Assembly: GCA_036397015.1 (NCBI GenBank)
Contig: DASWJT010000098.1
Location: 529-64,528 of the forward strand
Length of the DNA stretch: 64,000 bases
Reading direction: 5' to 3'
Source of the DNA: Thermoanaerobaculia bacterium
GTDB taxonomy: Bacteria; Acidobacteriota; Thermoanaerobaculia; Multivoradales; JAGPDF01
Shown here: one piece after another, positions 9,518 to 35,257 of the stretch
Layout of the letters: the number at the start of each line of letters is the position of its first letter
How positions within the stretch are numbered: the first letter of the stretch is position 1
Notes under the pieces: generated by a model
Seen by the model: only the letters and a program-made list of their open reading frames with translations
Databases searched by the model: none
Told to the model about the DNA's origin: nothing
Program-made: the position numbers and the translations under genes

Positions 9518-10984
9518 ATGGCGCTCGAACAGAAGCTCTCCCTCAAGCTCTCCCAGCGACTGGTGATGACGCCGTCGCTGCAGCAGGCGATCAAGCTCCT
9601 GCAGATGACGCGCATGGAGCTGGAGACCGTCGTCGCCCAGGAGCTCGAGGGAAATCCGGTGCTCGAGGAGCTCGAGGCCTCCGCGGACGAAGAAGAGGTT
9701 CAGGAGCCCGCGGCCGGCAACGGTGCCGAAGCCCCCGGCGAGCTGATGTCGCCGGCCGAGCGAGCGCAGGCGGAGGTGACGAGCTTCGAGCAGTGGATCT
9801 CCGAGGACTGGGGGGGCGACGGCGGGCAGGGGGAGTGGGAGGAGCGCGAGGCGCCCCCGATCGAGAATACGCTGACCCGCGAGCCGGACCTCTACGATCA
9901 CCTCCTGTCGCAGATCCATCTCTCCGATTTCGCCCCGCGCGAGCGCGAGATCGCCGAGGTCGTCGTCGGTAACCTGGATCCCGACGGATTCCTGGTCGCC
10001 TCGCTCGCGGAAATCCGCGAGGCGGGCAGCGGTGGGGGAGAGGAGAACGAATGGAGCGAGGAAGAGGTGCGCGAGGCGCTCGCCAAGGTGCGCCGGCTCG
10101 ATCCGCCGGGCATCGCCTGCTGCAACCTGCGGGAGAGTCTCCTCTTGCAGCTCGACTGCAAGGGAGAGCCGGAGGGCTCGCTCGTGCGCCGCGTGCTCGG
10201 CGAGCACTGGGACCTTTTCCTGCGCCGCCACTACCCGGCGATCGCCAAGTCGCTCGGCATCCCACTCGCCGACCTCGAGCCGGTCATCGAGAGCATCCGC
10301 TGCCTCGAGATCCGCCCCGGCCGCGCCTTCTCGAACGAGCGGACGCTCTACATCGAGCCGGACGTCTACGTCGTCAAGGTCGGTGACGACTACGTCGTGC
10401 AGATCAACGACGACGGCCTGCCGCGCCTGCGCGTCAGCCGCGCCTACCGGCGCATGCTGCAGAAGATGCGTGCCGAGAATCGCCAGGCCGAAGCGCAGTC
10501 GTTCCTCACCGACAAGATGCGCTCGGCGCTGTGGCTGATCAAGAGCCTCGACCAGCGGCAGCGCACGATCTACAAGGTCGCGGAGTCGATCGTCAAGCAG
10601 CAGCGCGACTTCCTCGACCGTGGCATCGACGAGCTGCGTCCGATGGTGCTGCGCGACGTCGCCGACGACATCGGCATGCACGAGTCGACGGTGTCGCGCG
10701 TCGTCTCCAACAAGTACATCCATACACCGCGCGGCCTGTTTCCGCTCAAGTTCTTCTTCCACAGCGGGATCGACCGCGATTACGGCGAGGACATCTCGTC
10801 GCTGACGGTGAAGAAGAAGATCCGCGTGCTGATCGAGAACGAGGACCATCGCCATCCGTTGTCGGACAACGAACTGATGCGGATCCTCAAGCGCGAGGGG
10901 ATCCAGATCGCGCGCCGCACGGTGGCGAAGTACCGCGACGAGCTCAACCTGTCTTCCTCGGCGGATCGCAAGCGGATCTTCTGA
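9518..10984 (+). CDS. rpoN: RNA polymerase sigma-54 factor (488 aa)
   Basis: Region I reads LKLSQRLVMTPSLQQAIKLLQ and the C-terminal RpoN box is ARRTVAKYR. Confidence 0.97.
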   Translation: MALEQKLSLKLSQRLVMTPSLQQAIKLLQMTRMELETVVAQELEGNPVLEELEASADEEEVQEPAAGNGAEAPGELMSPAERAQAEVTSFEQWISEDWGGDGGQGEWEEREAPPIENTLTREPDLYDHLLSQIHLSDFAPREREIAEVVVGNLDPDGFLVASLAEIREAGSGGGEENEWSEEEVREALAKVRRLDPPGIACCNLRESLLLQLDCKGEPEGSLVRRVLGEHWDLFLRRHYPAIAKSLGIPLADLEPVIESIRCLEIRPGRAFSNERTLYIEPDVYVVKVGDDYVVQINDDGLPRLRVSRAYRRMLQKMRAENRQAEAQSFLTDKMRSALWLIKSLDQRQRTIYKVAESIVKQQRDFLDRGIDELRPMVLRDVADDIGMHESTVSRVVSNKYIHTPRGLFPLKFFFHSGIDRDYGEDISSLTVKKKIRVLIENEDHRHPLSDNELMRILKREGIQIARRTVAKYRDELNLSSSADRKRIF

Positions 10985-11003
10985 GCGCCGGAGAGAGAAT
11001 CCC

Positions 11004-11564
11004 ATGCAGATCGAATTCGCCGCCCGTCACGTCGCTCTCGACGACCCGCTGCGCAGCCTGACGGAGGAGCGCCTGGGCCGCGCCGTCCGCTTTCTGCGCG
11101 AGCCGATCGAGGTGCGTGTCGCCCTCGACGGCACCGCTGGCGACAAGCGACTGGTAGGTGCGGAGGTCCACGTCGTTCACCGACACGGCGACTTGCACGC
11201 ACGCTGCGAGGATGTCGATCCGCGCGAAGCAATGACCAGGGCGCTGACCGCGATCGAAGTACAGGCCAAGCGGGCGCGCGAGCGCGCCGTCGACAAGCGC
11301 CGGCGCGCCAGCCGCGATGCCGCCAGCTCGCGGCAGTGGCCGGTGGACGTGCTGGCGCGCGAGAGCCTGCGCAGCGGCGGCACGCCGCGCATCGTGCGTT
11401 CCTCGAGATTCACCATCGAGCCGATGACGCTCAACCAGGCCGCGATGCGGCTCGATTCCTCGCGAAACGAGTTCGTGGTCTTCCTCGACGCCGAGCGCGA
11501 CAAGGTGAGCGTTCTCTACAAGCGCAAGGACGACGACTACGGATTGATCGCGCCCGAGGGCTGA
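11004..11564 (+). CDS. hpf: ribosome hibernation promoting factor, long form (186 aa)
   Basis: There is a sigma54-modulation/RaiA N-terminal domain plus the C-terminal dimerisation domain (VVFLDAERDKVSVLYKRKDDDYGLI). It lies immediately after rpoN. Confidence 0.9.
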   Translation: MQIEFAARHVALDDPLRSLTEERLGRAVRFLREPIEVRVALDGTAGDKRLVGAEVHVVHRHGDLHARCEDVDPREAMTRALTAIEVQAKRARERAVDKRRRASRDAASSRQWPVDVLARESLRSGGTPRIVRSSRFTIEPMTLNQAAMRLDSSRNEFVVFLDAERDKVSVLYKRKDDDYGLIAPEG

Positions 11565-16316: not shown

Positions 16317-17145
16317 TCGCGCGGCGCGAGCCGCTTGGGCGCGCCGACTCCTGGTCGGCCTGGCCATCGCCGCGGCCGCCTGCGCCACGGCGCCCAAGAA
16401 GGCCGGCGAGGGCGCGCCGCTGCCGCCGCAGATGGTCGTGCCGCCGTCGCCGGCGGAGCCCGCGGCGCCCCCTGCCGAGGCGCCCGACGACGAGCGCGCC
16501 GACGGCACGCCCCAGGGACCTTCCGCCGCCGAGCCGACGCTGATCGTGATCGATCCGGTGGCGCCCGAGGAGCTGCGGGCGCCGAGCTTGGCGCAGGCCG
16601 CGGCGCGGGAGCGCGCGCGCCGCCAGGCCGAGCCCGGGCCGGTGCTCGTCGTCACCGATCAGAATCTCGCGCAGCATGCGGCGGGGGGCGTTCTCACCAT
16701 CGCCCATTCGACACCGGAAGAAGAGGCGCAGATCGCGGCCGAGGCGGAGAACAGCGCCGAGCGCGAGAGCGATTGGCGCGAGCGCGGCCTCGAGATCCGC
16801 AAGCGCTGGCGCGAGGCGGTGGATCTCATCCCCGAGCTCGAGTCCAAGGTCGCGGAGCTGCGCCAGCAGTTCTACTCGACCGACGACCCCGCGATCCGCG
16901 ACGGCCGCATCAAGCCGGAGTGGGACAAGGCGATCGCCGACCTCGAGCAGGCGCGATTCCGCGCCGAGCGCGGGAGCGAGGAGGTCGCAGCGTTCCTCGA
17001 CGAGGGCCGGCGCGCCGGCGCGCTACCCGGATGGCTGCGCGAGGGGGCCGAGCTGGAGCCCGAGCCGGTGGTCGAGCAGGTCGAGGGCTTCGCCGACCAC
17101 GAGCCGCGCGAGCCCGAGATCTACGAGCCGCCGCCGTTGCGATGA
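16303..17145 (+). CDS. hypothetical lipoprotein, Pro/Ala/Glu-rich with a coiled-coil C-terminal half (280 aa)
   Basis: The signal peptide ends in a lipobox-like LAIAAAAC. Third codon positions are GC-rich. No recognisable domain was found. Confidence 0.6.
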   Translation: MAAPDRAARAAWARRLLVGLAIAAAACATAPKKAGEGAPLPPQMVVPPSPAEPAAPPAEAPDDERADGTPQGPSAAEPTLIVIDPVAPEELRAPSLAQAAARERARRQAEPGPVLVVTDQNLAQHAAGGVLTIAHSTPEEEAQIAAEAENSAERESDWRERGLEIRKRWREAVDLIPELESKVAELRQQFYSTDDPAIRDGRIKPEWDKAIADLEQARFRAERGSEEVAAFLDEGRRAGALPGWLREGAELEPEPVVEQVEGFADHEPREPEIYEPPPLR

Positions 17146-18635
17146 CGACGCGGGACGGGCCGCGCGCGCCCGCCTCCGGCCGGCGTTTCTTCGTCGAGAC
17201 CTGGGGCTGCCAGATGAACGAGCTCGACAGCCAGCGCATGGCCGGCCAGCTCATGGCGCAAGGCATGCTGCCGGCGGGCGAGGCCGCCGCGGCCGACCTC
17301 ATCCTCCTCAACTCCTGCAGCGTGCGCGAGAAGGCGGTGCACAAAGTCTATTCGCGGCTGGGGGAGTATCGGCGACTCAAGCAGGAGCGGCCCGATCTCC
17401 GCATCGGCCTCTGCGGCTGCGTCGCTCAGCAGGAGGGCGAGCGGGCACTGGCGCGCGTCGCCGACCTCGACTTCGTGCTCGGTCCGGCGCGGGTGGGGGA
17501 GCTGGCGGAGCTGCTGCCGCGCCTGGCCGGCGGCGAGCGGGTCGTCGCCACCGGTTTTCCGGAGGATCGCGTCTACGAGCTCGACGACGTCGCCCGCTTC
17601 GGCGAGTTCAAGGGCATGGTGACGGCGATCGAGGGTTGCGACCAACGCTGCACGTTTTGCATCGTGCCGTCCACCCGCGGACCCGAGCGCTGCCGACCGA
17701 TGGCGCAGATCGTCGCCGAGGTGGAGCACCTGCTGGCGCTCGGCTTCGTCGAGATCGAGCTCCTCGGCCAGACCGTGAACCACTGGCGGGAGCCGGGCGG
17801 GGAGGCCGACTTCGCCGACCTGCTCGATGCCGTGGCGCCCCTGGAGGGACTCCGCCGGCTGCGCTTCGTCACTTCGTATCCGCGCGACTTCACGGTGCGC
17901 ATGGTCGAGCGCTTCGCGCGCCACGAGAACATCTGCGACTACTTTCATCTCCCGGTACAGTCGGGGAGCGATGCTGTCCTGCGCCGCATGGGCCGCGGCT
18001 ATACCGTCGCTTCCTATCTCGACCTGGTCGACACCGTGCGCCGGGCGCGCCACTCGATCGCTCTCTCGACGGACCTCATCGTCGGCTTTCCGGGCGAGCG
18101 CGAAGAGGACTTCGAGCGCACGCTCGAGCTCCTCGAGCAAGTTCGTTTCGCGGCACTGTTCGCCTTCTGCTTCTCGCCCCGGCCGGGGACGGCGGCAACC
18201 CGGCTCGACGGACAGGTCCCCGGCCCGGTCGCCGAGGAGCGCCTGCAGCGCCTCCTTGCGGCGCAGGCGCGCATCCAGGCGGAGATCAACGAGAGCCTCG
18301 TCGGGCGCGAGCTCGACGTGCTCGTGACGGGGACGGGCAAGGGACCCGACAGCCTCGTCGGCCGGACCGGGTGCAACCGTATCGTCCATCTCGACCTCGG
18401 AACGGACGGCGGAGATAGCGGCCGAAAGATTCAGCCAGTGGTCCGTGGTCGGATCGTTCGGGCCCAGGTCACGCGCGCGATGCCGCATAGCCTGCGCGGC
18501 CGTCTCGTCGCGCCGCCCGACTTCGAGGCGAACGAGCCCCGAAGGGTCGGCCTCGCCGGGTCGGCGAGCAGCCGAGCAAGCCGTTCCGATCGAAACCGGT
18601 CGACGGGTCAGCGCCTTTTCCCGATCGTGGAGTGA
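17142..18635 (+). CDS. miaB: tRNA-i6A37 methylthiotransferase MiaB (497 aa)
   Basis: The N-terminal cluster motif is ETWGCQMN, the radical-SAM motif is CDQRCTFC, and a TRAM-like C-terminus is present. It joins the upstream gene through an ATGA overlap. A ~45-aa low-complexity C-terminal tail is present. Confidence 0.93.
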   Translation: MTTRDGPRAPASGRRFFVETWGCQMNELDSQRMAGQLMAQGMLPAGEAAAADLILLNSCSVREKAVHKVYSRLGEYRRLKQERPDLRIGLCGCVAQQEGERALARVADLDFVLGPARVGELAELLPRLAGGERVVATGFPEDRVYELDDVARFGEFKGMVTAIEGCDQRCTFCIVPSTRGPERCRPMAQIVAEVEHLLALGFVEIELLGQTVNHWREPGGEADFADLLDAVAPLEGLRRLRFVTSYPRDFTVRMVERFARHENICDYFHLPVQSGSDAVLRRMGRGYTVASYLDLVDTVRRARHSIALSTDLIVGFPGEREEDFERTLELLEQVRFAALFAFCFSPRPGTAATRLDGQVPGPVAEERLQRLLAAQARIQAEINESLVGRELDVLVTGTGKGPDSLVGRTGCNRIVHLDLGTDGGDSGRKIQPVVRGRIVRAQVTRAMPHSLRGRLVAPPDFEANEPRRVGLAGSASSRASRSDRNRSTGQRLFPIVE

Positions 18636-18700
18636 AGCTTTAGCTGGGCCCCGGGGGGGCGGAAACGCCTGTCTGGACGAACGTCCCGATCTCGTTTCTA

Positions 18701-18728
18701 ACGTCCGATAAGAAAGATTATGTTAAGT
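18701..18728 (+). other. dif: candidate dif site (XerC/XerD chromosome dimer resolution): ACGTCCGATAA-GAAAGA-TTATGTTAAGT
   Basis: The right arm matches the E. coli XerD arm TTATGTTAAAT at 10/11 and the B. subtilis arm TTATGTAAACT at 9/11. The left arm matches the B. subtilis XerC arm ACTTCCTAGAA at 8/11 and keeps the inner ATAA. The 11-6-11 geometry is correct. It is an AT-rich island in the convergent miaB/parB gap, where gene orientation flips. Confidence 0.6.
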
Positions 18729-18741
18729 ATGCATCTGGAGC

Positions 18742-18758
18742 CCGCCCAGCACGGGCGG
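18742..18758. terminator. short GC hairpin between dif-like site and parB stop (possible parB/miaB terminator)
   Basis: CCGCCC-agcac-GGGCGG lies in a convergent intergenic gap. On the minus strand it is followed by the AT-rich tract. Confidence 0.35.
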
Positions 18759-18798
18759 CCTTCGCTCACCCTCTTGACACGCTCCGTGTTGGAGGTCC

Positions 18799-19686
18799 CT
18801 ACTCCTTCGCGCCCTTCAGCTCGTCCAGGATCTGCTCGAGTGCCCGGATGAGATCCATCTTTTCGACCGTGCTCTGCCGGAAGGTCAGATTGAGCGCGAA
18901 ACGGCGGTCGGGCGCGCGGAACTTGAAGACGTAGGGCTTTCGCCGGTCGCCGCCGCCGCCCTTCTGACGGGCCGCACGCCGCAGGTCGTCCCGCGAGAGC
19001 CTCTGGCCGGAGGCCTTGTCGAGCAATTTCCGCATCGTCTCGACATCCCTCGCCTTGGCGATCTCCAGCAATGCGGACTTGGCATGGATGCCCATCGCTT
19101 CGGCCATCCGCCGCAGCTCGAGCGGGATCTCGAGCAGAGCCAGCGATTCGGTAATCGAACTGCGCGCTTTGCCCACCGAGGCAGCGATCTGCTCGTGCGT
19201 GTAGGCGTGCCGCTCGCCGAGGGCCCGGTAGCCCTCGGCCTCCTCGAAGGGCGTGAGGTCCTTGCGCTGGAGATTCTCGATGAGAGTGATCTCCAGCGCC
19301 TCCTCCTCGGAGACCTGGAGCTCGATGACGGGGACCTCGTAGAGGCCGACCTCCAGGGCTGCGCGGTAGCGGCGCTCGCCGGCGACGATCCGATAGCGAG
19401 GCCCGGCTCCAGCCTCGTTTCCAACCGGCCGGAGTCCTGCGGGGCTGGTGTCCGCTCGCACCAGGATCGGCTCGAGAATGCCCTTTTCGCGGATCGATTG
19501 CACGAGGTCGTCCAGATCGCCGACGTCGCCGCGCGGTTGGGTGGGATCGGGTTGAAGCGCCGAGAGCGGCACCATCTTGCCCACGGGCGCCTCGTGCCGA
19601 ACCGCGAGCTCGTCGACGAAGTGGGCGGAGTGCCGCATCTTCACTCGCAGCGGCAGGCCGCGCTTGCCGGAGGATGGTTCAGACAC
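18799..19686 (-). CDS. parB: ParB/Spo0J-family partition protein (295 aa)
   Basis: The ParB N-terminal domain has the arginine patch GERRYRAA. An HTH region follows (YTHEQIAASVGKARSSITESL). It overlaps the end of parA by 8 nt. Confidence 0.9.
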   Translation of the reverse strand: MSEPSSGKRGLPLRVKMRHSAHFVDELAVRHEAPVGKMVPLSALQPDPTQPRGDVGDLDDLVQSIREKGILEPILVRADTSPAGLRPVGNEAGAGPRYRIVAGERRYRAALEVGLYEVPVIELQVSEEEALEITLIENLQRKDLTPFEEAEGYRALGERHAYTHEQIAASVGKARSSITESLALLEIPLELRRMAEAMGIHAKSALLEIAKARDVETMRKLLDKASGQRLSRDDLRRAARQKGGGGDRRKPYVFKFRAPDRRFALNLTFRQSTVEKMDLIRALEQILDELKGAKE

Positions 19687-20437
19687 GGCTCAGGATCTCC
19701 TCCGAGAGCTTGTAATACTCGTAGGCCCCGCTCGATCTCGGCGCGAAGGAGAAGATCGCCTCCTTGTACGCCGGGCTCTCCTCGAGCCGGACGCTCTTGG
19801 TGATCACGGTCTCGAAGAGGCGGTCGCCGAAGACCCTCTGGATCTGCTCGACGATGTCCTTGGCCAGGAGCGTGCGCTTGTCGAAGAGCGTGATCACCGC
19901 TCCCAGGATTTGCAGCTGCGGATTCGCTCGCGACTTCACCTTCTCCACCGTCTCGAGCAGATCGTCCGTCCCCTCGAGGGCGAAGTACGACGACTGGATC
20001 GGCACCAGGACGTGCGAAGCGGCGACGAGCGCGTTGACCGTGATGATGCCGAGCGTCGGCGGCGTATCGAGGAGGATGTAATCGTACTCCTCTCCCACCG
20101 GCGCCAGCGCATCTTTCAGGCGGTAGTGGCTGTCGAGCTCGCCGATGAGCTTGGCCTCGAGCTTGGCGAGGGTGATCGACGACGCCGCCACCGCGAGGTT
20201 CGCGACCTTGGCGGCGGGCTGGATGACCTCTCGCAGCGAGCAGGCCGGCTCGACGAGCGCGTCGTAGATGGTGCGCTCGAGGGAGTGCACGTCGAGAAAA
20301 GACATCGTCGCGTTCGCCTGAGGATCGAGATCAACGAGCAGAGTGCGAAGACCTTTGGAAGCGAACGCAGCGGCGAGGTTGATGGCGGTCGTCGTCTTAC
20401 CGACACCGCCCTTCTGATTGGTGATCGCCAGGATCAT
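19679..20437 (-). CDS. parA: ParA/Soj-family partition ATPase (252 aa)
   Basis: The deviant Walker A is NQKGGVGKTTT. DLDPQAN and LLDTPP motifs are also present. Confidence 0.93.
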   Translation of the reverse strand: MILAITNQKGGVGKTTTAINLAAAFASKGLRTLLVDLDPQANATMSFLDVHSLERTIYDALVEPACSLREVIQPAAKVANLAVAASSITLAKLEAKLIGELDSHYRLKDALAPVGEEYDYILLDTPPTLGIITVNALVAASHVLVPIQSSYFALEGTDDLLETVEKVKSRANPQLQILGAVITLFDKRTLLAKDIVEQIQRVFGDRLFETVITKSVRLEESPAYKEAIFSFAPRSSGAYEYYKLSEEILSRV

Positions 20438-20449
20438 GAGGAGGCGGCG

Positions 20450-20478
20450 AGTCTACGGAAGCGACCGGGGGTGGTCAA
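20450..20478 (-). promoter_or_regulatory. sigma70-like promoter for parAB (TTGACC, 17 nt, TAGACT on the minus strand)
   Basis: The minus-sense sequence reads TTGACC-acccccggtcgcttccg-TAGACT-cgccgcctcctc-ATG. The -10 box ends 12 nt before the start codon and no SD is present. Confidence 0.45.
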
Positions 20479-20530
20479 GCGCACGTGCCTGTTCAGCGCG
20501 CTCTGGTCGGCGCGCCGACAATCTCTCTAA

Positions 20531-20558
20531 ACAATTGATAATAAAGATCTTAATATCC
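20531..20558 (+). repeat. AT-rich partial dif-like repeat (ACAATTGATAA-TAAAGA-TCTTAATATCC)
   Basis: It is in the same orientation as the 18701 site. GATAATAAAGATC matches GATAAGAAAGATT at 11/13, covering the inner XerC arm plus central region. The XerD-arm equivalent is degenerate and about 3 nt shorter. It also contains the palindromes CAATTG and AAGATCTT. Confidence 0.4.
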
Positions 20559-20569
20559 TATGGCGCAAT

Positions 20570-21043
20570 TCACATCGAGTACTTTCCGAGATCTTCGGGG
20601 CCCGCTCTCTCCAACCATTCGCGGATCCTCTCCTCGTCGGTCTCTCGCGTTGCACGAGAGTTTTCGAGAGCCGCGTCGAGGACCTTCCGCGCCGTCCAGA
20701 TCGGCGCGTGCGCGCGCAGCGCGATCGCGATCGCGTCACTCGGCCGCGAATCGATCACGAGCTCCCCCGACGGAGTCGAGACGATGAGACGCGCGTGAAA
20801 CGTCCCCGCTTCGAGAGCGTGGACTTCCACGCGAAGGAGCCGTCCACCGAGCGCTTCGAGGGTCGCGCGCAAGAGGTCGTGGGTGAGCGGCCGCGGAGGC
20901 TCGATGCCCTCGACGGCGAGCGCGATGGCGTTGGCCTCGAAGGCGCCGATCCAGATCGGCAGGAAAACGTCGCCGTCGACCTCGCGCAGGATGAGCACGG
21001 GCGACTCCGTGTTGGGATCGAGAATGAGGCCACGGAGCCTCAT
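20570..21043 (-). CDS. bifunctional nuclease (BFN/DUF151) domain protein (157 aa; alternative start 21127)
   Basis: The sequence is typical of the BFN family: LILDPNTESPVLILREVDGDVFLPIWIGAFEANAIA...HDLL...ARLIV...IDSRPSDAIAIALR. The upstream part of the long ORF is Arg-rich junk. Confidence 0.8.
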   Translation of the reverse strand: MRLRGLILDPNTESPVLILREVDGDVFLPIWIGAFEANAIALAVEGIEPPRPLTHDLLRATLEALGGRLLRVEVHALEAGTFHARLIVSTPSGELVIDSRPSDAIAIALRAHAPIWTARKVLDAALENSRATRETDEERIREWLERAGPEDLGKYSM

Positions 21044-21156
21044 CTCGACGAAATCTTCCGGAGGTCCGGCGCGCTCGCTCACTCCTCGATTGTCGGTCCC
21101 AGGCGATGGCAGGTCAAGGGAGCGCATCGCCGGAGCGGGAGAACGCGCAGTCACTC

Positions 21157-21576: not shown

Positions 21577-21739
21577 GACGACGCTCCTCGGTGAAGCCGG
21601 ACGCGCCGGCCGCGGAACTGCACGGCGTCGGCGTTACGTAATTCGAGCGTAAGTGAAGCGACAGCGGCTGCCGTGCCGCGAAGCCCTCTCGTTCGCCCTC
21701 TCCCGCACCGCCTCTTCGCACTCCGTAGAATGCCGAGTC

Positions 21740-24127
21740 GTGTTGCGCCGACTCGACCGCTACGTCCTCTCCGAGCTGGTCGGACCGCTCTCTCTCGGAC
21801 TGCTCGTCTACACGTTCATTCTATTGCTGCAAACCTTCTTCCGGCTGGCCGAGATGATCATCAAGCGCGGCCTGCCGGCGGGCACCGTCGGCCAGCTGCT
21901 GCTCTTCAGTCTGCCCAACATCGTCGTCCTGACGCTGCCGATGTCCTTCCTGCTCGCCGTGCTCGTCGGCGTCGGGCGCCTGGCGTCGGACAGCGAGCTC
22001 GTCGCTCTGCGCGCTTCGGGGGTCAGCCTCTATCGCATCCTGCGCCCGGTGCTGTTGTTCGGCGTTCTCCTCGCCGGCTTCAACACGTTTCTCATGCTCG
22101 AGCTCTTGCCGCGGGGCAACACCGCCTATATGCGCCTCTTCCTCGACATCGCGACGCGGACGATCGGATCGCAGTTCGAGCCGCGCGTCTTCTACAACGA
22201 GTTCCAGGGCAAGATCCTCTACATCTTCGACATTCCTCCGGGCGCCGACGACTGGCGTGGCATTTTCCTCGCCGATTCGGTGCCGAGCCCGGACCGCCCG
22301 CACGAGGTGCTGGTCGCGGAGCGCGGCCGGCTCGAGCTCTCCGCCGACGGCGAGCAGGTCTCCATCCGTCTCGAAAACGCGGTCCAGCACACGCTCGACA
22401 TCAATCGCCCCGACCGCTACGAAACGCGACGCTCGGAGCGCATGCGGGTTCTGCTGCGCGACCGGTTCGCGACCGAGGAGCGCGCCAAGGCCTTCTCCCG
22501 CAAGTCGGTGCGCTCGATGACCTGGGGCGAGGCGAGCGTGGCGGCCGTCGATCCGGCGAGCACGCCGCAGGGCCGTGCCGAGGCCCGCGTTCAGCTGCAC
22601 AAGTTCTTCGCCATCCCGGTGGCGTGCGTCGTCTTCGCGCTGCTGGCGCTGCCGCTCGCCTTCAACAACCGGCGGGGCGGCAAGTCGTCGGGTTTCGCCT
22701 TCTCGATCGGGATCGTCGTCGCCTACTACCTGATGCTGAGCCAGGGCGAGAAGGCGGCCATCGCCGGCGAGCTCTCGCCGGCAGCCTCGATGTGGCTGCC
22801 GAACGTGGTGCTCGGCGCCTGCGGGTTGGTGCTCATCGCGGCACGCAATCGCGATCGCTCCCTGCTTCCGGGCTGGCTGCGGCACAGCGCCCCCGTCCGC
22901 CGGCTGCTGGCGCGGTTGCGCGGCACCGCATCGCGCGCGGGAAGGCGCTCTCGTCGGCGCGGCGAGGGCGGTCGAGTCGGCGCCGGCCGCGGCGCCCGGC
23001 GGGCGCGCTTCCTGCTGCGGCTGCCGCGCCTGCGCATCCGCTTTCCCAATCTCATCGACCGTTACGTGTTGCGAATGTACTTCTTCGTTTTCCTTCTCGT
23101 CATCGCTTCCGCGGTCTCGTTGCTGGTCATCACCGACTTCACCGAGAACGTCGACGAGATGATGAGGAACCGCCCTCCGGGAGCAGTGATCGCGCGCTAC
23201 TACCGCTACCAGTCGCTGCAGCTCGCCTACGACATTGCGCCCATCGCCGTACTGGTCACGACCCTGGTCACCTTCTCGCTGCTCTCGCGCTCCAACGAGG
23301 TCACGGCGTGCCGGGCCCTCGGCATCAGCCTCTACCGCCTGGCGCTGCCGGCCTTCGTCGGCGCGGCGGCGACCGCCGGCCTCTTCGCGCTGCTGCAGGC
23401 CCAGGTCCTCCCCGCCTCCAACCTCAAGGTGGCGGAGGCGCGGGCGGTGATCCGCGGCGAGGCGGTGCATCGCTTCGCCCGCAGCGCCGATCGCCAGTGG
23501 CAGATGGGCGGCGGCCGCTTCATGTACAACTTTCTCCATTTCGACGCGACGCGCGATGCGTTGCAGCGGCTGCAGGTCTTCGAGTTCGAGCACACGGGGC
23601 GGCTGGTCGCGCGGCTCTATGCCGAGGAGGGGCGGCATCGCGTCGACGGCTGGGTGCTCGCTCGCGGCTGGACGCGCACCTTCGACGGCCGCGAGCAGCG
23701 CGGCTACCGGCCGTTCGCCTCCGAGGTCGAGGTCGATCTCGAGGAATCGCCCGATTTCTTCGCCGAAGAGCCCCGGCGCCCCGAGCAGATGACCTACGGT
23801 GAGCTCGCCGACTTCACGGCCGAGCTGCGCGCCAGCGGCAGGCCGCAACCGAAGTACGAGGTCGCCCTCCACAACAAGCTGGCGTTCCCGGTGGGCTCGA
23901 TCGTCATGGCCCTGGTGGGTTTCCCCTTCGCCTTCCGCCTCGAGCGGCGCGGCGCGCTCTACGGCCTCGGCGTGTCGATCGCGCTCGGCCTCGTCTTCAT
24001 CCTCGTCTTCGCTCTCTTCACCACGCTGGGCGAGGTCGCGGCCCTGCCCCCGGCGGTCGCGGTGTGGAGCCCGAGCATCCTCTTCTCGCTCTTCGCCGCC
24101 TACCTCTTCCTCGGCGTGCGCAGCTGA
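21740..24127 (+). CDS. fused LptF-LptG-type LPS export permease (two YjgP/YjgQ modules, 795 aa)
   Basis: Module 1 starts VLRRLDRYVLSELVGPLSLGLLVY. Module 2 starts NLIDRYVLRMYFFVFLLVIAS at about nt 23048. The modules are joined by an Arg-rich linker with no stop and no in-frame ATG/GTG just before module 2. Confidence 0.8.
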   Translation: MLRRLDRYVLSELVGPLSLGLLVYTFILLLQTFFRLAEMIIKRGLPAGTVGQLLLFSLPNIVVLTLPMSFLLAVLVGVGRLASDSELVALRASGVSLYRILRPVLLFGVLLAGFNTFLMLELLPRGNTAYMRLFLDIATRTIGSQFEPRVFYNEFQGKILYIFDIPPGADDWRGIFLADSVPSPDRPHEVLVAERGRLELSADGEQVSIRLENAVQHTLDINRPDRYETRRSERMRVLLRDRFATEERAKAFSRKSVRSMTWGEASVAAVDPASTPQGRAEARVQLHKFFAIPVACVVFALLALPLAFNNRRGGKSSGFAFSIGIVVAYYLMLSQGEKAAIAGELSPAASMWLPNVVLGACGLVLIAARNRDRSLLPGWLRHSAPVRRLLARLRGTASRAGRRSRRRGEGGRVGAGRGARRARFLLRLPRLRIRFPNLIDRYVLRMYFFVFLLVIASAVSLLVITDFTENVDEMMRNRPPGAVIARYYRYQSLQLAYDIAPIAVLVTTLVTFSLLSRSNEVTACRALGISLYRLALPAFVGAAATAGLFALLQAQVLPASNLKVAEARAVIRGEAVHRFARSADRQWQMGGGRFMYNFLHFDATRDALQRLQVFEFEHTGRLVARLYAEEGRHRVDGWVLARGWTRTFDGREQRGYRPFASEVEVDLEESPDFFAEEPRRPEQMTYGELADFTAELRASGRPQPKYEVALHNKLAFPVGSIVMALVGFPFAFRLERRGALYGLGVSIALGLVFILVFALFTTLGEVAALPPAVAVWSPSILFSLFAAYLFLGVRS

Positions 24128-25939: not shown

Positions 25940-27118
<1,179 letters not shown>

Positions 27119-30480: not shown

Positions 30481-31236
30481 ATGCCCTACCCCACGATGCC
30501 CTCGCCCACCTTCGCAGCGCTCTCGACCGTCGCCGTCGCCCAGGCGGGCGGAATCATGGACGCGTTCGGCCAGGCCGGGCCGATGGCCAAGCTCGTGCTC
30601 GCCGTCCTCGCCGGTTTCTCGGTGATCTCCTGGGCGGTGATGATCTGGAAGTGGCTCCACCTCAAGCGGGCGCGCCGCCAGAGTCGCCAGTTCCTCGACA
30701 TCTTCCGCGCCAGCAAACGCTTCAGCGAAGTGAGCGCCGCGCTGGCGAGAGTCTCGCTCTCCCCTCTCGTCGGGGTCTTCCAGGCCGGCTACGCCGAGAT
30801 CGACGGTCAGATCCGCGCCGTCCCCCAGGAGCCCGGCGCCTCCGCCTCGAAGTACCGCATCCGCTCGCTCGCCGGCGTCGAGCGCTCGCTGCGGCGGGCG
30901 ATCGCCGGCGAAACTCATCTGCTGGCACGCGGCGCCACGTTCCTCGCCACGACCGCGGCGGCGACTCCGTTCATCGGCCTGTTCGGCACCGTCTGGGGCA
31001 TCATGCAGGCGTTCGAGGACATCGGCCGCACCGGCTCGACCTCGCTCGTCGCCGTAGCGCCCGGCATCGCCGAGGCCCTGGTCAACACCGCCGCCGGCCT
31101 CGCCGCCGCGATCCCGGCGCTCGTCGGCTACAACTACTTCGCCAACCAGCTGCGCAGCCAGCGCACGCAGATGGAGGACTTCGCCCTCGAATTCCTCAAT
31201 CTCGCCGAGCGCAATTTCACCGGATGGCCTTCCTGA
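30481..31236 (+). CDS. tolQ: Tol-Pal system protein TolQ (MotA/TolQ/ExbB channel; 251 aa, alternative start 30556)
   Basis: It has three TM segments, including GLFGTVWGIMQAF and the APGIAEALVNTAAGL motif. It is the first gene of a tolQRAB-pal-cpoB cluster. Confidence 0.9.
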   Translation: MPYPTMPSPTFAALSTVAVAQAGGIMDAFGQAGPMAKLVLAVLAGFSVISWAVMIWKWLHLKRARRQSRQFLDIFRASKRFSEVSAALARVSLSPLVGVFQAGYAEIDGQIRAVPQEPGASASKYRIRSLAGVERSLRRAIAGETHLLARGATFLATTAAATPFIGLFGTVWGIMQAFEDIGRTGSTSLVAVAPGIAEALVNTAAGLAAAIPALVGYNYFANQLRSQRTQMEDFALEFLNLAERNFTGWPS

Positions 31237-31658
31237 TCGGCGGCGCGGGCGAGGACGAAGAGGTCCTCGCCGACATCAACGTCACGCCGCTCGTCGACGT
31301 GATGCTGGTGCTGCTCATCATCTTCATGATCTCGGCGCCGATGTTGCATCAGGGGATCGAGGTGGCACTCCCCCGCTCCGCGGCCCCCGCCATCCCGACG
31401 CGCACGAACGATCCGCTCGTGCTCTCGATCAATCGCGACGGCCTCGTCTACGTGCGCGACAAGCCGGTGCACCCCACCCGGCTGATCGAGGTGCTGACGC
31501 CCATGCTGCGCGGACGCGGCGAAGAGACCGTCTTCCTCAAGGGCGACCGCGACGTTGCCTACGGCAAGGTGATCGAGGTGCTCGACCTGCTGCACAAGGG
31601 CGGGATCTCGAAGGTCGGCATGGTCACTGACCGTCCGGACGAGCGCCGGAGCCGATGA
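31224..31658 (+). CDS. tolR: Tol-Pal system protein TolR (ExbD/TolR family, 144 aa)
   Basis: The TM segment ADINVTPLVDVMLVLLIIF carries the conserved Asp. Confidence 0.9.
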   Translation: MAFLIGGAGEDEEVLADINVTPLVDVMLVLLIIFMISAPMLHQGIEVALPRSAAPAIPTRTNDPLVLSINRDGLVYVRDKPVHPTRLIEVLTPMLRGRGEETVFLKGDRDVAYGKVIEVLDLLHKGGISKVGMVTDRPDERRSR

Positions 31659-32386
31659 TCGAGAGCGTCTCGGCGCTGCTCGAGCGGCGCGCCGCGGCGC
31701 CGCTCGACGGCTCGTTCCGACGGGCTGTCGCCGCTGCCGCCGTCCTCCACCTGCTCACCGTGCTCGCCGCCTGGGCCCTCCCGCGCTGGCTCGAGCCGGC
31801 TCCTCCGCCGCTCGAGTACGTCGCTGTCACGATCGTGCCGGCAGCGCGGCTGGGCGTCGAGCCGCCCAAGCCCCCCTCGCCGAAGCCGGCGCCGGAGCCG
31901 AAGAAAATCGAGCCGGAGCCGGCGCCGAAGAGCGAGTCGGCGCCGGTGCTGCCGGTGGCCACGCCGAAGAAAGAGGAGCCCAAGCCGGCACCGCGCGCCG
32001 CCGAGCCGCAGCGAGAGTCCGCCGCTGCGGCCGCCACGCCGGAGGAGCAAGGCATTGCGGGCGGCGCACTCTCCGGCCTGGCGCTCGGCGCACCGGTTGC
32101 GCGCCTCGACAACCCCGACTTCACCTACGGCTACTACGTCGATCAGATGCTGGCGCTGATCTCCCGCAACTGGGTGCGGCCGCCTGTCGGCGGCGGCATC
32201 GAGGTCTGGGTCCACTACCGCATCGAGCGCGACGGGAAAGTGACCGGGATCGAAATCATCCGCTCCTCGGGAATCAACAGCTTCGACCTCGCCGCGCTGC
32301 GTGCCGTGCAGTCCTCTTCGCCGCTTCCGCCCCTGCCGCGCGCCTATCGCGAGAGCTCGCTCGGCGTGAACCTCATCGTCCGTTGA
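31655..32386 (+). CDS. tolA: TolA/TonB-like energy transducer (243 aa)
   Basis: It has an N-terminal TM helix, a Pro/Lys/Glu-rich spacer (PKPPSPKPAPEPKKIEPEP) and a TonB_C-like domain. It joins tolR through an ATGA overlap. Confidence 0.8.
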   Translation: MIESVSALLERRAAAPLDGSFRRAVAAAAVLHLLTVLAAWALPRWLEPAPPPLEYVAVTIVPAARLGVEPPKPPSPKPAPEPKKIEPEPAPKSESAPVLPVATPKKEEPKPAPRAAEPQRESAAAAATPEEQGIAGGALSGLALGAPVARLDNPDFTYGYYVDQMLALISRNWVRPPVGGGIEVWVHYRIERDGKVTGIEIIRSSGINSFDLAALRAVQSSSPLPPLPRAYRESSLGVNLIVR

Positions 32387-32400
32387 AGGAGACGCCGTCC

Positions 32401-33753
32401 ATGAGACGCCACCTCGCCGCCACGCTGCTCGCCACGCTCGGCGTGGCCGGTCTCGACGCGCAGAGCCCGCCGGCGGAGACGACGGCACCCCCACCGCCCG
32501 CCCCGCAGGGCATCACCGTTGTGCTCGACCGCGGCAGCCAAGTCGCCATCGTCGGCCTCGCCTTCCCCGCCACGCCGGGCCTCTCCGTGCTGCCGGGCAG
32601 CGCCGCCAACGCCGGGCGCGAGCTCGAGCGCACGCTGCGCAACGACCTCGAGCGCAGCGGCATCTTCGACGTGCTCGGCCCCGAGGAGCTCTCCGTGCTG
32701 ACGCTCTCCGGCGACCTCGAGCGCGACGCCGAGCAGTACCGCTCGCTCGGCGCCTCGATGCTGCTGCAGAACGAGATCAAGCTCGAGGGCGACCGCCTGG
32801 TGCTGGAAGGCCGGCTCGTCGACCTCGCCAGCCGCCAGACGATCGTCGGCAAGCGCTACCGCGGCACCTTCGACCTGGCGCGGCGCATCGCGCACACCTT
32901 CGCCGACGAGATCGTCCTCTTCCTCACCTCCAAGCGCGGCATCGCCCTGACGTCGATCGCCTTCTACTCCGATCGCGACGGCTTCAAGGAGATCTTCGTC
33001 ATGGACTACGACGGCTACGACCAGCGGCGGCTGACGGCCCACAAGTCGATCTCGATGAGCCCGTCGTGGAGCGGCCAGGGCGACGCCGTCGCCTACGTGT
33101 CGTTCTTCGCCGAGCGCGGCCCCGCGGTCTACCTCGCCGACGTGGCGAGCGGGCGCAAGAACCCGGTCGTCACCGACGGCACGCTCAACGCCTCGCCGTC
33201 CTTCTCGCCCGACGGCCGGCGCATCGCATTCGCGCGCGCCCTGGGCGCCAACATCGAGATCTTCGTCTGCAGCCGCGACGGCTCGGACGTGCGGCGGCTG
33301 ACCAACTCCGGCGGCATCGACACCAATCCGGCGTGGAGCCCGTCGGGACGCGAGATCGCTTTCACCTCGAGCCGCTCCGGATCGCCGCAGCTCTACGCCA
33401 TGGAGGCGGAGGGCTCGAACTTGCGCCGCGTCACCTTCGCGGGCGAGTACAACGACGGCGCGAGCTGGAGCCCCGACGGCACGCGCCTCGCCTACGCCAC
33501 CCGCAGCGAGCGCAACCGCTTCGACCTTGCCCTCGTCGACCTCGTCTCGCTCGCCGCGCGCCGGCTGACCTCCGGCGGCGGCTCGAACGAGGCGCCGAGC
33601 TTCTCGCCCGACGGGCGCCGCCTCGCCTTCACCTCGACGCGCGCCGGCGGCACCCAGATCTTCGCCTTGAACGTCGCCGACGGCGGCGACGTCGAGCAGC
33701 TCACCAGCGCGGGGAGCAACTGGGCGCCGGACTGGTCCGGATACCTGAAGTAG
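32401..33753 (+). CDS. tolB: Tol-Pal system beta-propeller protein TolB (450 aa)
   Basis: A signal peptide and TolB N-domain are followed by repeated PD40 blades (SPSWS, SFSPDG, NPAWSPSG, SWSPDG, PSFSPDG). An AAGGAG SD precedes ATG 32401. Confidence 0.93.
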   Translation: MRRHLAATLLATLGVAGLDAQSPPAETTAPPPPAPQGITVVLDRGSQVAIVGLAFPATPGLSVLPGSAANAGRELERTLRNDLERSGIFDVLGPEELSVLTLSGDLERDAEQYRSLGASMLLQNEIKLEGDRLVLEGRLVDLASRQTIVGKRYRGTFDLARRIAHTFADEIVLFLTSKRGIALTSIAFYSDRDGFKEIFVMDYDGYDQRRLTAHKSISMSPSWSGQGDAVAYVSFFAERGPAVYLADVASGRKNPVVTDGTLNASPSFSPDGRRIAFARALGANIEIFVCSRDGSDVRRLTNSGGIDTNPAWSPSGREIAFTSSRSGSPQLYAMEAEGSNLRRVTFAGEYNDGASWSPDGTRLAYATRSERNRFDLALVDLVSLAARRLTSGGGSNEAPSFSPDGRRLAFTSTRAGGTQIFALNVADGGDVEQLTSAGSNWAPDWSGYLK

Positions 33754-33848
33754 TCCCGGTCCGGCCATTGCTTGCCCAGCTCGCGTCTGCTAGCTTCGCC
33801 GCGGCCCCGGTCGACGACCGGGGCGAGCAACAGGCCAAGGAGAGCCCC

Positions 33849-34424
33849 ATGACGCGCTATCGGACGACGCTCGCGATCGCCACCCTCGCCCTCGCTTTGC
33901 TGACGCCGGCCTGCCGGAAGAAGAAGCCCGAGGCGCCGCCGCCGATTCCGCCGCCCGCGGTCCAGCCGGGGCAGCCGACTACCGACGTGACGCCGCGCAC
34001 GCAGGGCGAGGCGGTGGACCGGACTCCCGATCCGCTGGCTGGCGACATCGTCGCGGTCAACGAGTACGTGACGCGCAACGGGCTGCTCGGCGACGTCTTC
34101 TTCGCGTTCGACAAGGCCGACCTGAGCGAGGAATCGCGTTCGCGCCTGTCGCGCAACGCCGACTGGCTGCGCGCCCATCCCGAGTTCCAGGTGCGCATCG
34201 AGGGGCACTGCGACGAGCGCGGCACCAACGAGTACAACCTGGCACTCGGCGAGCGTCGCGCCGCAGCCGCTCGCGACTATCTCGCCTCCCTCGGCGTCGG
34301 CGCGGGCAGCCTGACTACGCTCAGCTACGGCGAGGAGCGGCCGCAGTGCACCGAATCGAGCGAGGGCTGCTGGGCGCGCAACCGCCGGGCGCACTTCCTC
34401 ATCACCGGCCGAGCCGCGCGCTGA
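33849..34424 (+). CDS. pal: peptidoglycan-associated lipoprotein Pal (OmpA-like, 191 aa)
   Basis: The lipobox is LLTPAC. The OmpA_C motifs are VFFAFDKADL, EGHCDERGTNEYNLALGERRA and NRRAHF. Confidence 0.93.
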   Translation: MTRYRTTLAIATLALALLTPACRKKKPEAPPPIPPPAVQPGQPTTDVTPRTQGEAVDRTPDPLAGDIVAVNEYVTRNGLLGDVFFAFDKADLSEESRSRLSRNADWLRAHPEFQVRIEGHCDERGTNEYNLALGERRAAAARDYLASLGVGAGSLTTLSYGEERPQCTESSEGCWARNRRAHFLITGRAAR

Positions 34425-34438
34425 GCCCGCAGCTCCGC

Positions 34439-35257
34439 ATGACGTCGTCGTTTGCGCAGCGCGCCGCGGCCGCCCTCGTGGCGGCCGCCCTCTCCGGTTG
34501 TGTCTCGTCGAGCGACATCGACTCCCTGAGCGGTCAGCTCGCCGAGCTCCAGCGCCAGGTCTCCTACCTCCAGCTGCAGGGCTCGAGCAAGCAAGAGGTG
34601 GCCGAGCTGCAGGCGACCATCCAGCAGCAGACCGAGAGGCTGCTCAAGACCGAGGCCGACATGCGCGTCGACCTGGGCAGCCTCACCGGCCAGATCGGTC
34701 AGCTGCAAGGGCAGCTCGAGGACACCAACTACCGCCTGTCGCAGCTCTCGCAACAGATCGCGGCGGCGAGCCTGGATCTGAAGGCCGTGCGCAGCGCCAC
34801 CGCGCCGCAGCTCGAGGCGGGCAGCCCGACGCCCGGCGGACAGGCGCCGGCGGCCGGAGCGGCCGATCCCGAGAGCCTCTACCAGACCGCTTACAGCGAT
34901 TATCTGCGCGGCGCCTACGATCTGGCGCTGCTCGGCTTCCGCCAGTACCTCGACAGCTTCCCGGAGACCGACCTCGCCGACAACGCCGTCTACTGGATCG
35001 GCGAGTGCTACTACCGCCAGCAGAGGTATCGCGAAGCGATCCTCGAGTACGAACGCGTGCTGCAGAACTGGCCGCGCAGCGACAAGACTGCCAGCGCCCT
35101 GCTCAAGAAGGGGTACGCGCAGATCGAATCGGGCAACCGCGGCGACGGCGTCGCCGGGCTCGAGCGCGTGATCCAGACCTTCCCCAACTCCGACGAGGCC
35201 AACCTGGCGCGCCAGAAGCTGCAGGGCCTCGGAGTTGATTCTCGCCGCCAGCGCTAG
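34439..35257 (+). CDS. cpoB: Tol-Pal system protein CpoB/YbgF (272 aa)
   Basis: A lipoprotein-like signal (AALSGC) and an N-terminal coiled coil are followed by a C-terminal TPR domain (YWIGECYYRQQRYREAI...LKKGYAQ). Confidence 0.85.
   Translation: MTSSFAQRAAAALVAAALSGCVSSSDIDSLSGQLAELQRQVSYLQLQGSSKQEVAELQATIQQQTERLLKTEADMRVDLGSLTGQIGQLQGQLEDTNYRLSQLSQQIAAASLDLKAVRSATAPQLEAGSPTPGGQAPAAGAADPESLYQTAYSDYLRGAYDLALLGFRQYLDSFPETDLADNAVYWIGECYYRQQRYREAILEYERVLQNWPRSDKTASALLKKGYAQIESGNRGDGVAGLERVIQTFPNSDEANLARQKLQGLGVDSRRQR

Follow-up and report, generated by a model that had tools for sequence, protein, structure and literature searches.

Chromosomal ParABS is treated as a device for origin segregation and SMC loading, because in nearly all species studied its centromere, parS, lies close to the origin. 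The described chromosomal systems (Bacillus, Thermus, Caulobacter and Myxococcus) combine a short Soj-type ParA, overlapping parA and parB genes, a ParB with the CTP-binding motif GERRxRA, a helix-turn-helix (HTH) and a C-terminal domain, and a 16-bp palindrome within or close to parB. We analysed a parA-parB operon with all of these features in a 64,000-nt stretch of a Thermoanaerobaculia genome (Acidobacteriota; contig DASWJT010000098.1), called the window hereafter, with a G+C content of 72%. It differs from the described systems in its palindrome (TGTCGGCGCGCCGACA here, TGTTNCACGTGAAACA there), in the ParB recognition helix (..VTEsLsL.. here, ..VANxLRLL.. there), in its upstream neighbour (a BFN-domain gene here, rsmG, or gidB, there) and in its location, at the XerCD site dif here and near oriC there.

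The original prediction had interpreted this operon as a partition cassette captured by Xer recombination, or else as ParAB with a functional link to the terminus. Our analysis makes it likely that the locus as a whole is a terminus-adjacent, vertically inherited ParABS system with a variant parS, and not a mobile cassette. Unless stated otherwise, the relatives used for comparison were 80 acidobacterial genomes or loci selected by ParB; individual loci and contigs are designated by L numbers.

A chromosomal-type ParA-ParB pair with an altered recognition helix

Both genes are on the minus strand, parA at 19679-20437 and parB at 18799-19686, and they overlap by 8 nt at the parB start. ParA (Soj type, 252 aa) has the deviant Walker A motif KGGVGKT and matches Pfam AAA_31 (5e-58), CbiA and MipZ. 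ParB is of the chromosomal Spo0J type (Pfam ParB_N/HTH_ParB), carries the N-terminal CTP motif GERRYRA and an HTH, and scores 131 bits against TIGR00180 (cutoff 58); among PDB entries it best matches 1VZ0, 7BNK and 6T1F (Spo0J and ParB). By motifs and family matches the pair belongs to the chromosomal ParABS type, and it is of the standard Spo0J type apart from the recognition helix. No close plasmid relative of ParB was found. A sigma-70-like promoter revealed by the promoter scan (TTGACC-N17-TAGACT, minus strand, 20450-20478) precedes parA, and the same hexamers and spacing were conserved in more than 25 relatives, with the general form TTGACC-N17-TA(G/C)ACT. Every string quoted by the original prediction was found where it had been placed, and parB, parA and a promoter of the operon were likewise confirmed.

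The ParB recognition helix (GKARSSITESLALL) is altered. All of the 86 ParB orthologues have G(K/R)(S/A)R..(V/I)TE.L.L at the place where canonical ParB and Noc have ..VANxLRLL; TE replaces AN, and the Arg is absent. Judging by ParB-parS structures, the two altered helix positions would take part in base recognition.

A dif site immediately downstream of parB

The convergent gap between miaB and parB contains ACGTCCGATAAGAAAGATTATGTTAAGT (18701-18728, plus strand; site 1 below), consisting of two 11-bp arms (XerC arm ACGTCCGATAA, XerD arm TTATGTTAAGT) around a 6-bp centre (GAAAGA) and matching the conserved arm consensus. Site 1 was scored with a position weight matrix (PWM) built from 44 dif-like sites adjoining parB in other genomes, leaving out the window's own site. 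It reached 34.7 bits (training sites ranged from 24.8 to 41.6) and was the sole positive match in 64 kb, the second-best 28-mer scoring -3.7 bits. The core GATAAN6TTATG is present once in the window (0.05 copies expected by chance), and in the relatives the 28-mer forms a sharply bounded conserved island in flanking intergenic DNA that is unconserved.

Known XerCD dif sites (E. coli dif, GGTGCGCATAATGTATATTATGTTAAAT, as well as actinobacterial and proteobacterial sites) have the same 11-6-11 layout. Site 1 shares with them the inner arms GATAA and TTATG, the XerD arm, the convergent intergenic gap and the switch in strand polarity, and within the window it is a single copy; nothing essential is different, and the orientation to the neighbouring genes varies among the acidobacterial relatives. 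As site 1 is conserved, occurs once in the window, has the sequence of a dif and lies at the polarity switch, we assign it as a genuine dif, in accordance with the original prediction, where XerCD would act in dimer resolution. No xer or ftsK genes are present within the window.

Duplicated sequences were observed at dif in two other contigs. A 2.9-kb metagenome contig (L133) carries two identical dif 28-mers, inverted and 1.6 kb apart (1054-1074 on the plus strand and 2665-2685 on the minus strand), representing either an assembly palindrome or a really duplicated site. In L003, a 7.05-Mb contig, the direct repeat GCAGGCNCAAACAGTC is located on either side of the dif core (around 10950-11030), and it may be the scar of a past Xer-mediated integration or excision.

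Gene orientation, GC skew and polar heptamers converge on dif

Left of dif, 17 of 17 genes are on the plus strand, in a run that ends with miaB and converges on dif, while 28 of the 47 genes on the right are on the minus strand. A similar orientation was observed in the relatives, where, up to 10 kb from dif, 413 of 524 genes are aimed at it. GC skew was analysed with a test controlled for gene strand, which replaced raw GC skew in 10-kb flanks. Coding-strand GC skew was +0.011 in plus-strand genes on the left (n = 17), -0.045 in plus-strand genes on the right (n = 19) and +0.005 in the minus-strand genes there (n = 28); the Mann-Whitney test gave p = 2e-4 and 6.5e-5. Therefore, the top strand is leading-like on the left of dif and the bottom strand is leading-like on the right. 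Cumulative GC skew showed a maximum, not a minimum, at approximately 18-22 kb; skew at third codon positions was dominated by codon usage and uninformative.

A de novo k-mer search revealed two polar G-rich heptamers, GCGGGGG and GGGGGAG, aimed at dif from either side across the window (1-64000). GCGGGGG occurs 7 times on the top and 0 times on the bottom strand to the left of dif and 0 and 16 times to the right (23:0, dif-directed versus opposed); the corresponding counts for GGGGGAG are 9/0 and 1/13 (22:1). The strand switch falls between 17.5 and 20.7 kb (examples are at 309, 3903 and 5190 on the top strand and at 26770, 31370 and 38635 on the bottom strand). Several of the right-side copies are inside plus-strand genes, and therefore this polarity is not simply a coding-strand effect. 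GGGGGAG was distributed similarly in 34 loci of the relatives (top/bottom, 93/17 on the left and 15/102 on the right; 195:32 toward dif). Both heptamers are candidates for the FtsK-orienting polar sequence (KOPS) or a Chi-like motif of this clade. Among the motifs of the E. coli/Bacillus KOPS test, GGGNAGGG showed a modest bias, GAGAAGGG was too rare in the window for judgement (one copy on each strand), and GAAGAAG showed no polarity toward dif. In the lower-GC Blastocatellia and Terriglobia the polar-motif test was uninformative, the motif being too rare there.

Converging genes, the G-rich strand and a KOPS/Chi-like motif are the signature of a terminus, not of an origin, and we interpret the region as the replication terminus of the Thermoanaerobaculia chromosome, presumably opposite oriC. 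If the locus were origin-proximal instead, the dif-like 28-mer would have another Xer-type or regulatory role. This would agree with the origin-proximal location of chromosomal parABS in nearly all studied bacteria, and the evidence considered here is sequence at the scale of the locus. However, genes converge on site 1 and do not diverge from there, both the G-rich strand and the heptamers are aimed at it from either side, cumulative GC skew peaks there, and the intergenic gaps are merely 133-163 bp. Moreover, no dnaA-like open reading frame was found within 10 kb of parB in the 80 genomes, and a DnaA motif scan of 166 loci found nothing. An origin-proximal location is thus very unlikely. The position of parB in four Mb-size contigs (2-27% from the contig end) is uninformative, as contig starts are arbitrary.

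The operon is vertically inherited and its adjacency to dif is ancestral

The BFN-parA-parB block was present with the same internal order in 80 of the 80 acidobacterial genomes sampled, and BFN is the invariant upstream neighbour of parA across the phylum. The longer order miaB-BFN-parA-parB was found repeatedly, in Thermoanaerobaculia, Vicinamibacteria, Blastocatellia, Terriglobia and other groups. In approximately 45 of the 80 genomes dif was found no more than 3 kb downstream of parB, mostly at 20-350 bp and in both orientations; these genomes include all of the Thermoanaerobaculia with contigs reaching past parB, Vicinamibacterales and one Aminicenantes contig, and the parB-dif adjacency spans at least three classes. 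The partition operon in BFN-parA-parB is native to the chromosome and vertically inherited, and its adjacency to dif is ancestral. As to the link between ParAB and the terminus in the original prediction, the conserved position supports it, while functional coupling is a proposal discussed below.

The ancestral order is miaB-BFN-parA-parB-dif-PTPS. One inversion of approximately 2.4 kb between miaB and PTPS (approx. 18690-21156 in the window, recognised by gene order and dif orientation compared to the relatives) separates the window, L004 and L006 from L009, L014, L030 and L031. The inverted unit is BFN-parS-parA-parB-dif, not the segment between the two AT-rich sites described below. Since this lineage-specific inversion took dif along with the block, the genes are still oriented toward dif. 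No convincing inversion-breakpoint or flanking repeats were found around the operon.

Further variation was observed around BFN and dif. In some relatives, 1-5 kb is inserted between parB, dif and PTPS (L016, 5490-9440; L031, 6800-13200; L015, L081, L082 and L030), and these insertions could be genuine islands at dif. BFN (DUF151) was also found beside dif in 7 of approximately 60 dif-seeded loci without parAB, far above chance (L159, 9037-9650; L127, 321-940; L089, L092, L161, L128 and L108). The arrangements of these mostly apparently non-acidobacterial loci are rho-BFN-dif-plsC, vWA-BFN-TPR-dif and miaB-BFN-...-dif, and their recurrence hints at a wider association between BFN and the terminus.

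The second AT-rich site is not a dif

Integrative mobile elements exploiting Xer recombination (IMEXs; CTX-phi, TLC-phi, VGJ-phi and the gonococcal genetic island) superficially resemble this locus, with dif on one side and an AT-rich sequence on the other. The corresponding interpretation is that XerCD integrated or captured parAB, which would be flanked by a good and a crippled dif and could be excised as a 1.8-kb circle. The presumed crippled copy is ACAATTGATAATAAAGATCTTAATATCC (20531-20558; site 2). Sites 1 and 2 are the two most AT-rich 24-mers of the window (19/24 and 21/24 A+T) and flank parAB in the same orientation. The 11/13 match between them, GATAA[G/T]AAAGAT[T/C], is real, and their best ungapped local score (10) is marginally above that of composition-preserving shuffles (6.8-7.3; p ~0.03-0.05). 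In a genome with 72% G+C, two AT-rich islands can resemble each other by composition alone.

While the match and the AT-richness of site 2 were confirmed, a resemblance to dif beyond chance was not: site 2 scored -10.8 bits on the dif PWM, a value equalled by 17% of its shuffled versions. Similarity between dif and the equivalent of site 2 was present in none of 18 relatives, each compared to its own dif, and the pair did not rank among the 20 leading families of direct repeats in the region. The partial XerC arm reported upstream of dif (ACGTCCCGAT, 18681-18690) is present, but it was not conserved even in the nearest relatives and was attributed to chance.

Site 2 follows a separate consensus, whose positions are fixed relative to the adjacent palindrome. 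In 25 loci, TAA, AtT and TTA are conserved at approximately -32, -21 and -10 from the palindrome, in helical phase. The site 2 centre, TAAAG(A/G), is constant, while the dif centre varies (GAAAGA in the window, GATAGA in L004 and L006); homology between Xer sites would demand the reverse. By these comparisons, site 2 is neither Xer-type nor dif-like. The A/T-phased element directly upstream of the palindrome (20521-20558, minus strand) reads TATCAATTGTTTA on the parA strand, fits the IHF-type consensus WATCAANNNNTTR, and is probably a DNA bend or a binding site for an IHF/HU-type protein. A role of site 2 as a second promoter is unlikely (3/6 match to the -10 hexamer; not flagged by the promoter scan).

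The cargo also differs from that of IMEXs, being a vertically inherited housekeeping operon without phage or replication genes; the window contains no integrase, phage, replication or other mobile-element genes. Across the phylum, the BFN-parA junction is conserved together with its palindrome and promoter, and the segment that was actually rearranged includes BFN and dif. The loci, selected by ParB, showed no presence/absence polymorphism. Some contigs not selected by ParB, such as the distant L108, have miaB-BFN near dif without parAB, and given such contigs there may have been an ancient insertion between BFN and dif. Considering the conserved block, the nature of site 2 and the gene content of the window together, capture of parAB by Xer recombination is highly improbable.

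A probable variant parS palindrome upstream of parA

A 16-bp palindrome, GGTCGGCGCGCCGACA (20505-20520, plus strand), is located approximately 26 nt upstream of the -35 hexamer of the parA promoter. It matches the phylum consensus, TGTCGGCGCGCCGACA, a perfect palindrome, at 15 of 16 positions. The original prediction reported no canonical parS nearby, and indeed the window contains no match to TGTTNCACGTGAAACA even with 3 mismatches allowed, but this non-canonical palindrome is a candidate for a variant parS or ParB operator. Canonical parS was also nearly absent across 86 loci, with only 6 two-mismatch matches in 5 loci.

By contrast with canonical parS, TGTCGGCNNGCCGACA was abundant in acidobacterial parAB loci. 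Exact copies numbered 73 (0 expected) and were distributed over 57 of the 80 ParB-seeded loci (1.25 Mb), some of which carry 2-4 copies. In an independent, dif-seeded metagenome sample it was present only in the 11 contigs with acidobacterial parAB. Essentially every Thermoanaerobaculia locus has the palindrome upstream of the conserved parA promoter, and in Vicinamibacteria and Blastocatellia it is embedded in parB, encoding C-R-(L/R)-A-D. Because of its abundance in parAB loci, the absence of canonical parS and the altered ParB helix, we read the palindrome as a variant parS. It is probably the re-specified parS of the phylum, serving in ParB nucleation and autoregulation.

The position and sequence of the palindrome vary with taxonomy. 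The embedded copy is at approximately +517 of parB in L054-L082 (for example, L056 10517-10532); the Thermoanaerobaculia parB lost the C-R-(L/R)-A-D motif (TVQALG there), the palindrome being upstream of parA instead. The window, L001 and L002, which are one species, have C instead of the outermost A on the parA strand; almost all other taxa carry a perfect palindrome.

Noc and its NBS site are a precedent for a ParB-family protein gaining a new 16-bp palindrome by a few changes in the recognition helix. Noc is a ParB paralogue, however, while the protein re-specified here is the partner of ParA, the ParB orthologue itself, and other residues are changed, as Noc retains AN and the R. Literature searches on the palindrome sequence, acidobacterial parS and parAB beside dif found nothing relevant in the papers searched, and this type of ParB-binding palindrome is probably previously undescribed, as is a parAB locus beside dif, at the end of the chromosome opposite to the usual one.

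Other features of the window

The gene order around the operon is miaB (plus strand), a 163-bp gap, parB and parA (minus strand), a 133-bp gap, BFN (minus strand), PTPS, a fused lptF-lptG and polX. The tRNA methylthiotransferase gene miaB (17142-18635, plus strand) matches Pfam UPF0004/Radical_SAM/TRAM, and its gene call is 497 aa in the same-species contig L001. The BFN-domain (DUF151) gene is at 20570-21085 on the minus strand (Pfam BFN_dom, 8e-40), and the database gene call extends to 21154. A scan of 18.4-21.2 kb revealed no intrinsic terminators. The fused lptF-lptG is a single 824-aa gene (21653-24127); here, as in most relatives, no other gene up to 10 kb from dif is oriented away from the site. 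The tolQ-tolR-tolA-tolB-pal-cpoB cluster (30481-35257) is on the inferred lagging strand and has the most negative coding-strand GC skew of the window. Besides tol-pal, the housekeeping genes of the window include carD, priA, accA, recJ, lptABC, rpoN, PTS genes, metK, leuS, nusB, der and guaA. The closest protein matches likewise place the organism in Thermoanaerobaculia.

A working model and its alternatives

In the model that we propose, parA and parB would be transcribed toward dif from their own sigma-70 promoter, the palindrome upstream of this promoter would be the site of ParB nucleation and autoregulation, and site 2, a helically phased A/T element ahead of the palindrome, would bend DNA or bind an IHF/HU-type protein. 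Several observations weigh against this interpretation. The single copy of dif refers to the 64-kb window only, and raw GC skew around dif was weak (left higher than right in 26 of 35 loci). Gene and motif orientation are partly confounded in the relatives, whose loci lack phylogenetic independence. Only about 10 of 25 relatives have the IHF-like match at site 2. The window palindrome has one mismatch and is the single copy in 64 kb (up to 2 mismatches allowed), and the proposed binding of ParB to it rests on their co-occurrence.

We tentatively propose that the re-specified parS, TGTCGGCGCGCCGACA, at the terminus might be the only centromere of the clade, and that the ParB complex might mark and move the terminus and dif region or couple to FtsK/XerCD. 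The palindrome-dif distance (0.4-2 kb) is within the typical spreading distance of ParB. An equally tentative scope for this proposal would be Thermoanaerobaculia, Vicinamibacteria and allied Acidobacteriota, where the system might act on the terminus rather than on the origin. If ParB marks the terminus, the locus would resemble MatP/matS, the organiser of the enterobacterial Ter macrodomain, in being a sequence-specific DNA-binding system around dif; MatP belongs to an unrelated protein family, and only a functional analogy is possible.

It is also conceivable, though short of probable, that the adjacency is a frozen accident, with an origin-proximal functional parS and a palindrome that is an autoregulatory operator without any link to dif. 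The one slightly imperfect palindrome in 64 kb and its position just upstream of the promoter in Thermoanaerobaculia would fit an operator. Selection for co-orientation and low rearrangement near dif would suffice to maintain the adjacency, and dif is not adjacent to parB in the Blastocatellia and Terriglobia loci. Against a frozen accident, the adjacency is usually below 350 bp, spans the three or more classes mentioned above with both dif orientations, and persisted through the inversion. Other classes carry the palindrome in parB or as 2-4 copies around parAB, like true centromere clusters, and no dnaA-like reading frame accompanies parB within 10 kb in the 80 genomes.

Implications for partition in Acidobacteriota

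Searches for canonical parS will wrongly report Acidobacteriota as lacking a centromere. The rewriting of ParB DNA specificity becomes testable in this phylum, as two normally conserved helix positions changed together with the palindrome core. What a ParB-parS complex does at the terminus is likewise testable now, as is the FtsK-orienting or Chi-like polar motif of the phylum. If the terminus interpretation is true, an environmentally dominant phylum would have parAB and an apparent centromere right beside dif, providing a natural counter-example to the textbook origin-centred role of ParABS, which would be inverted in these bacteria.

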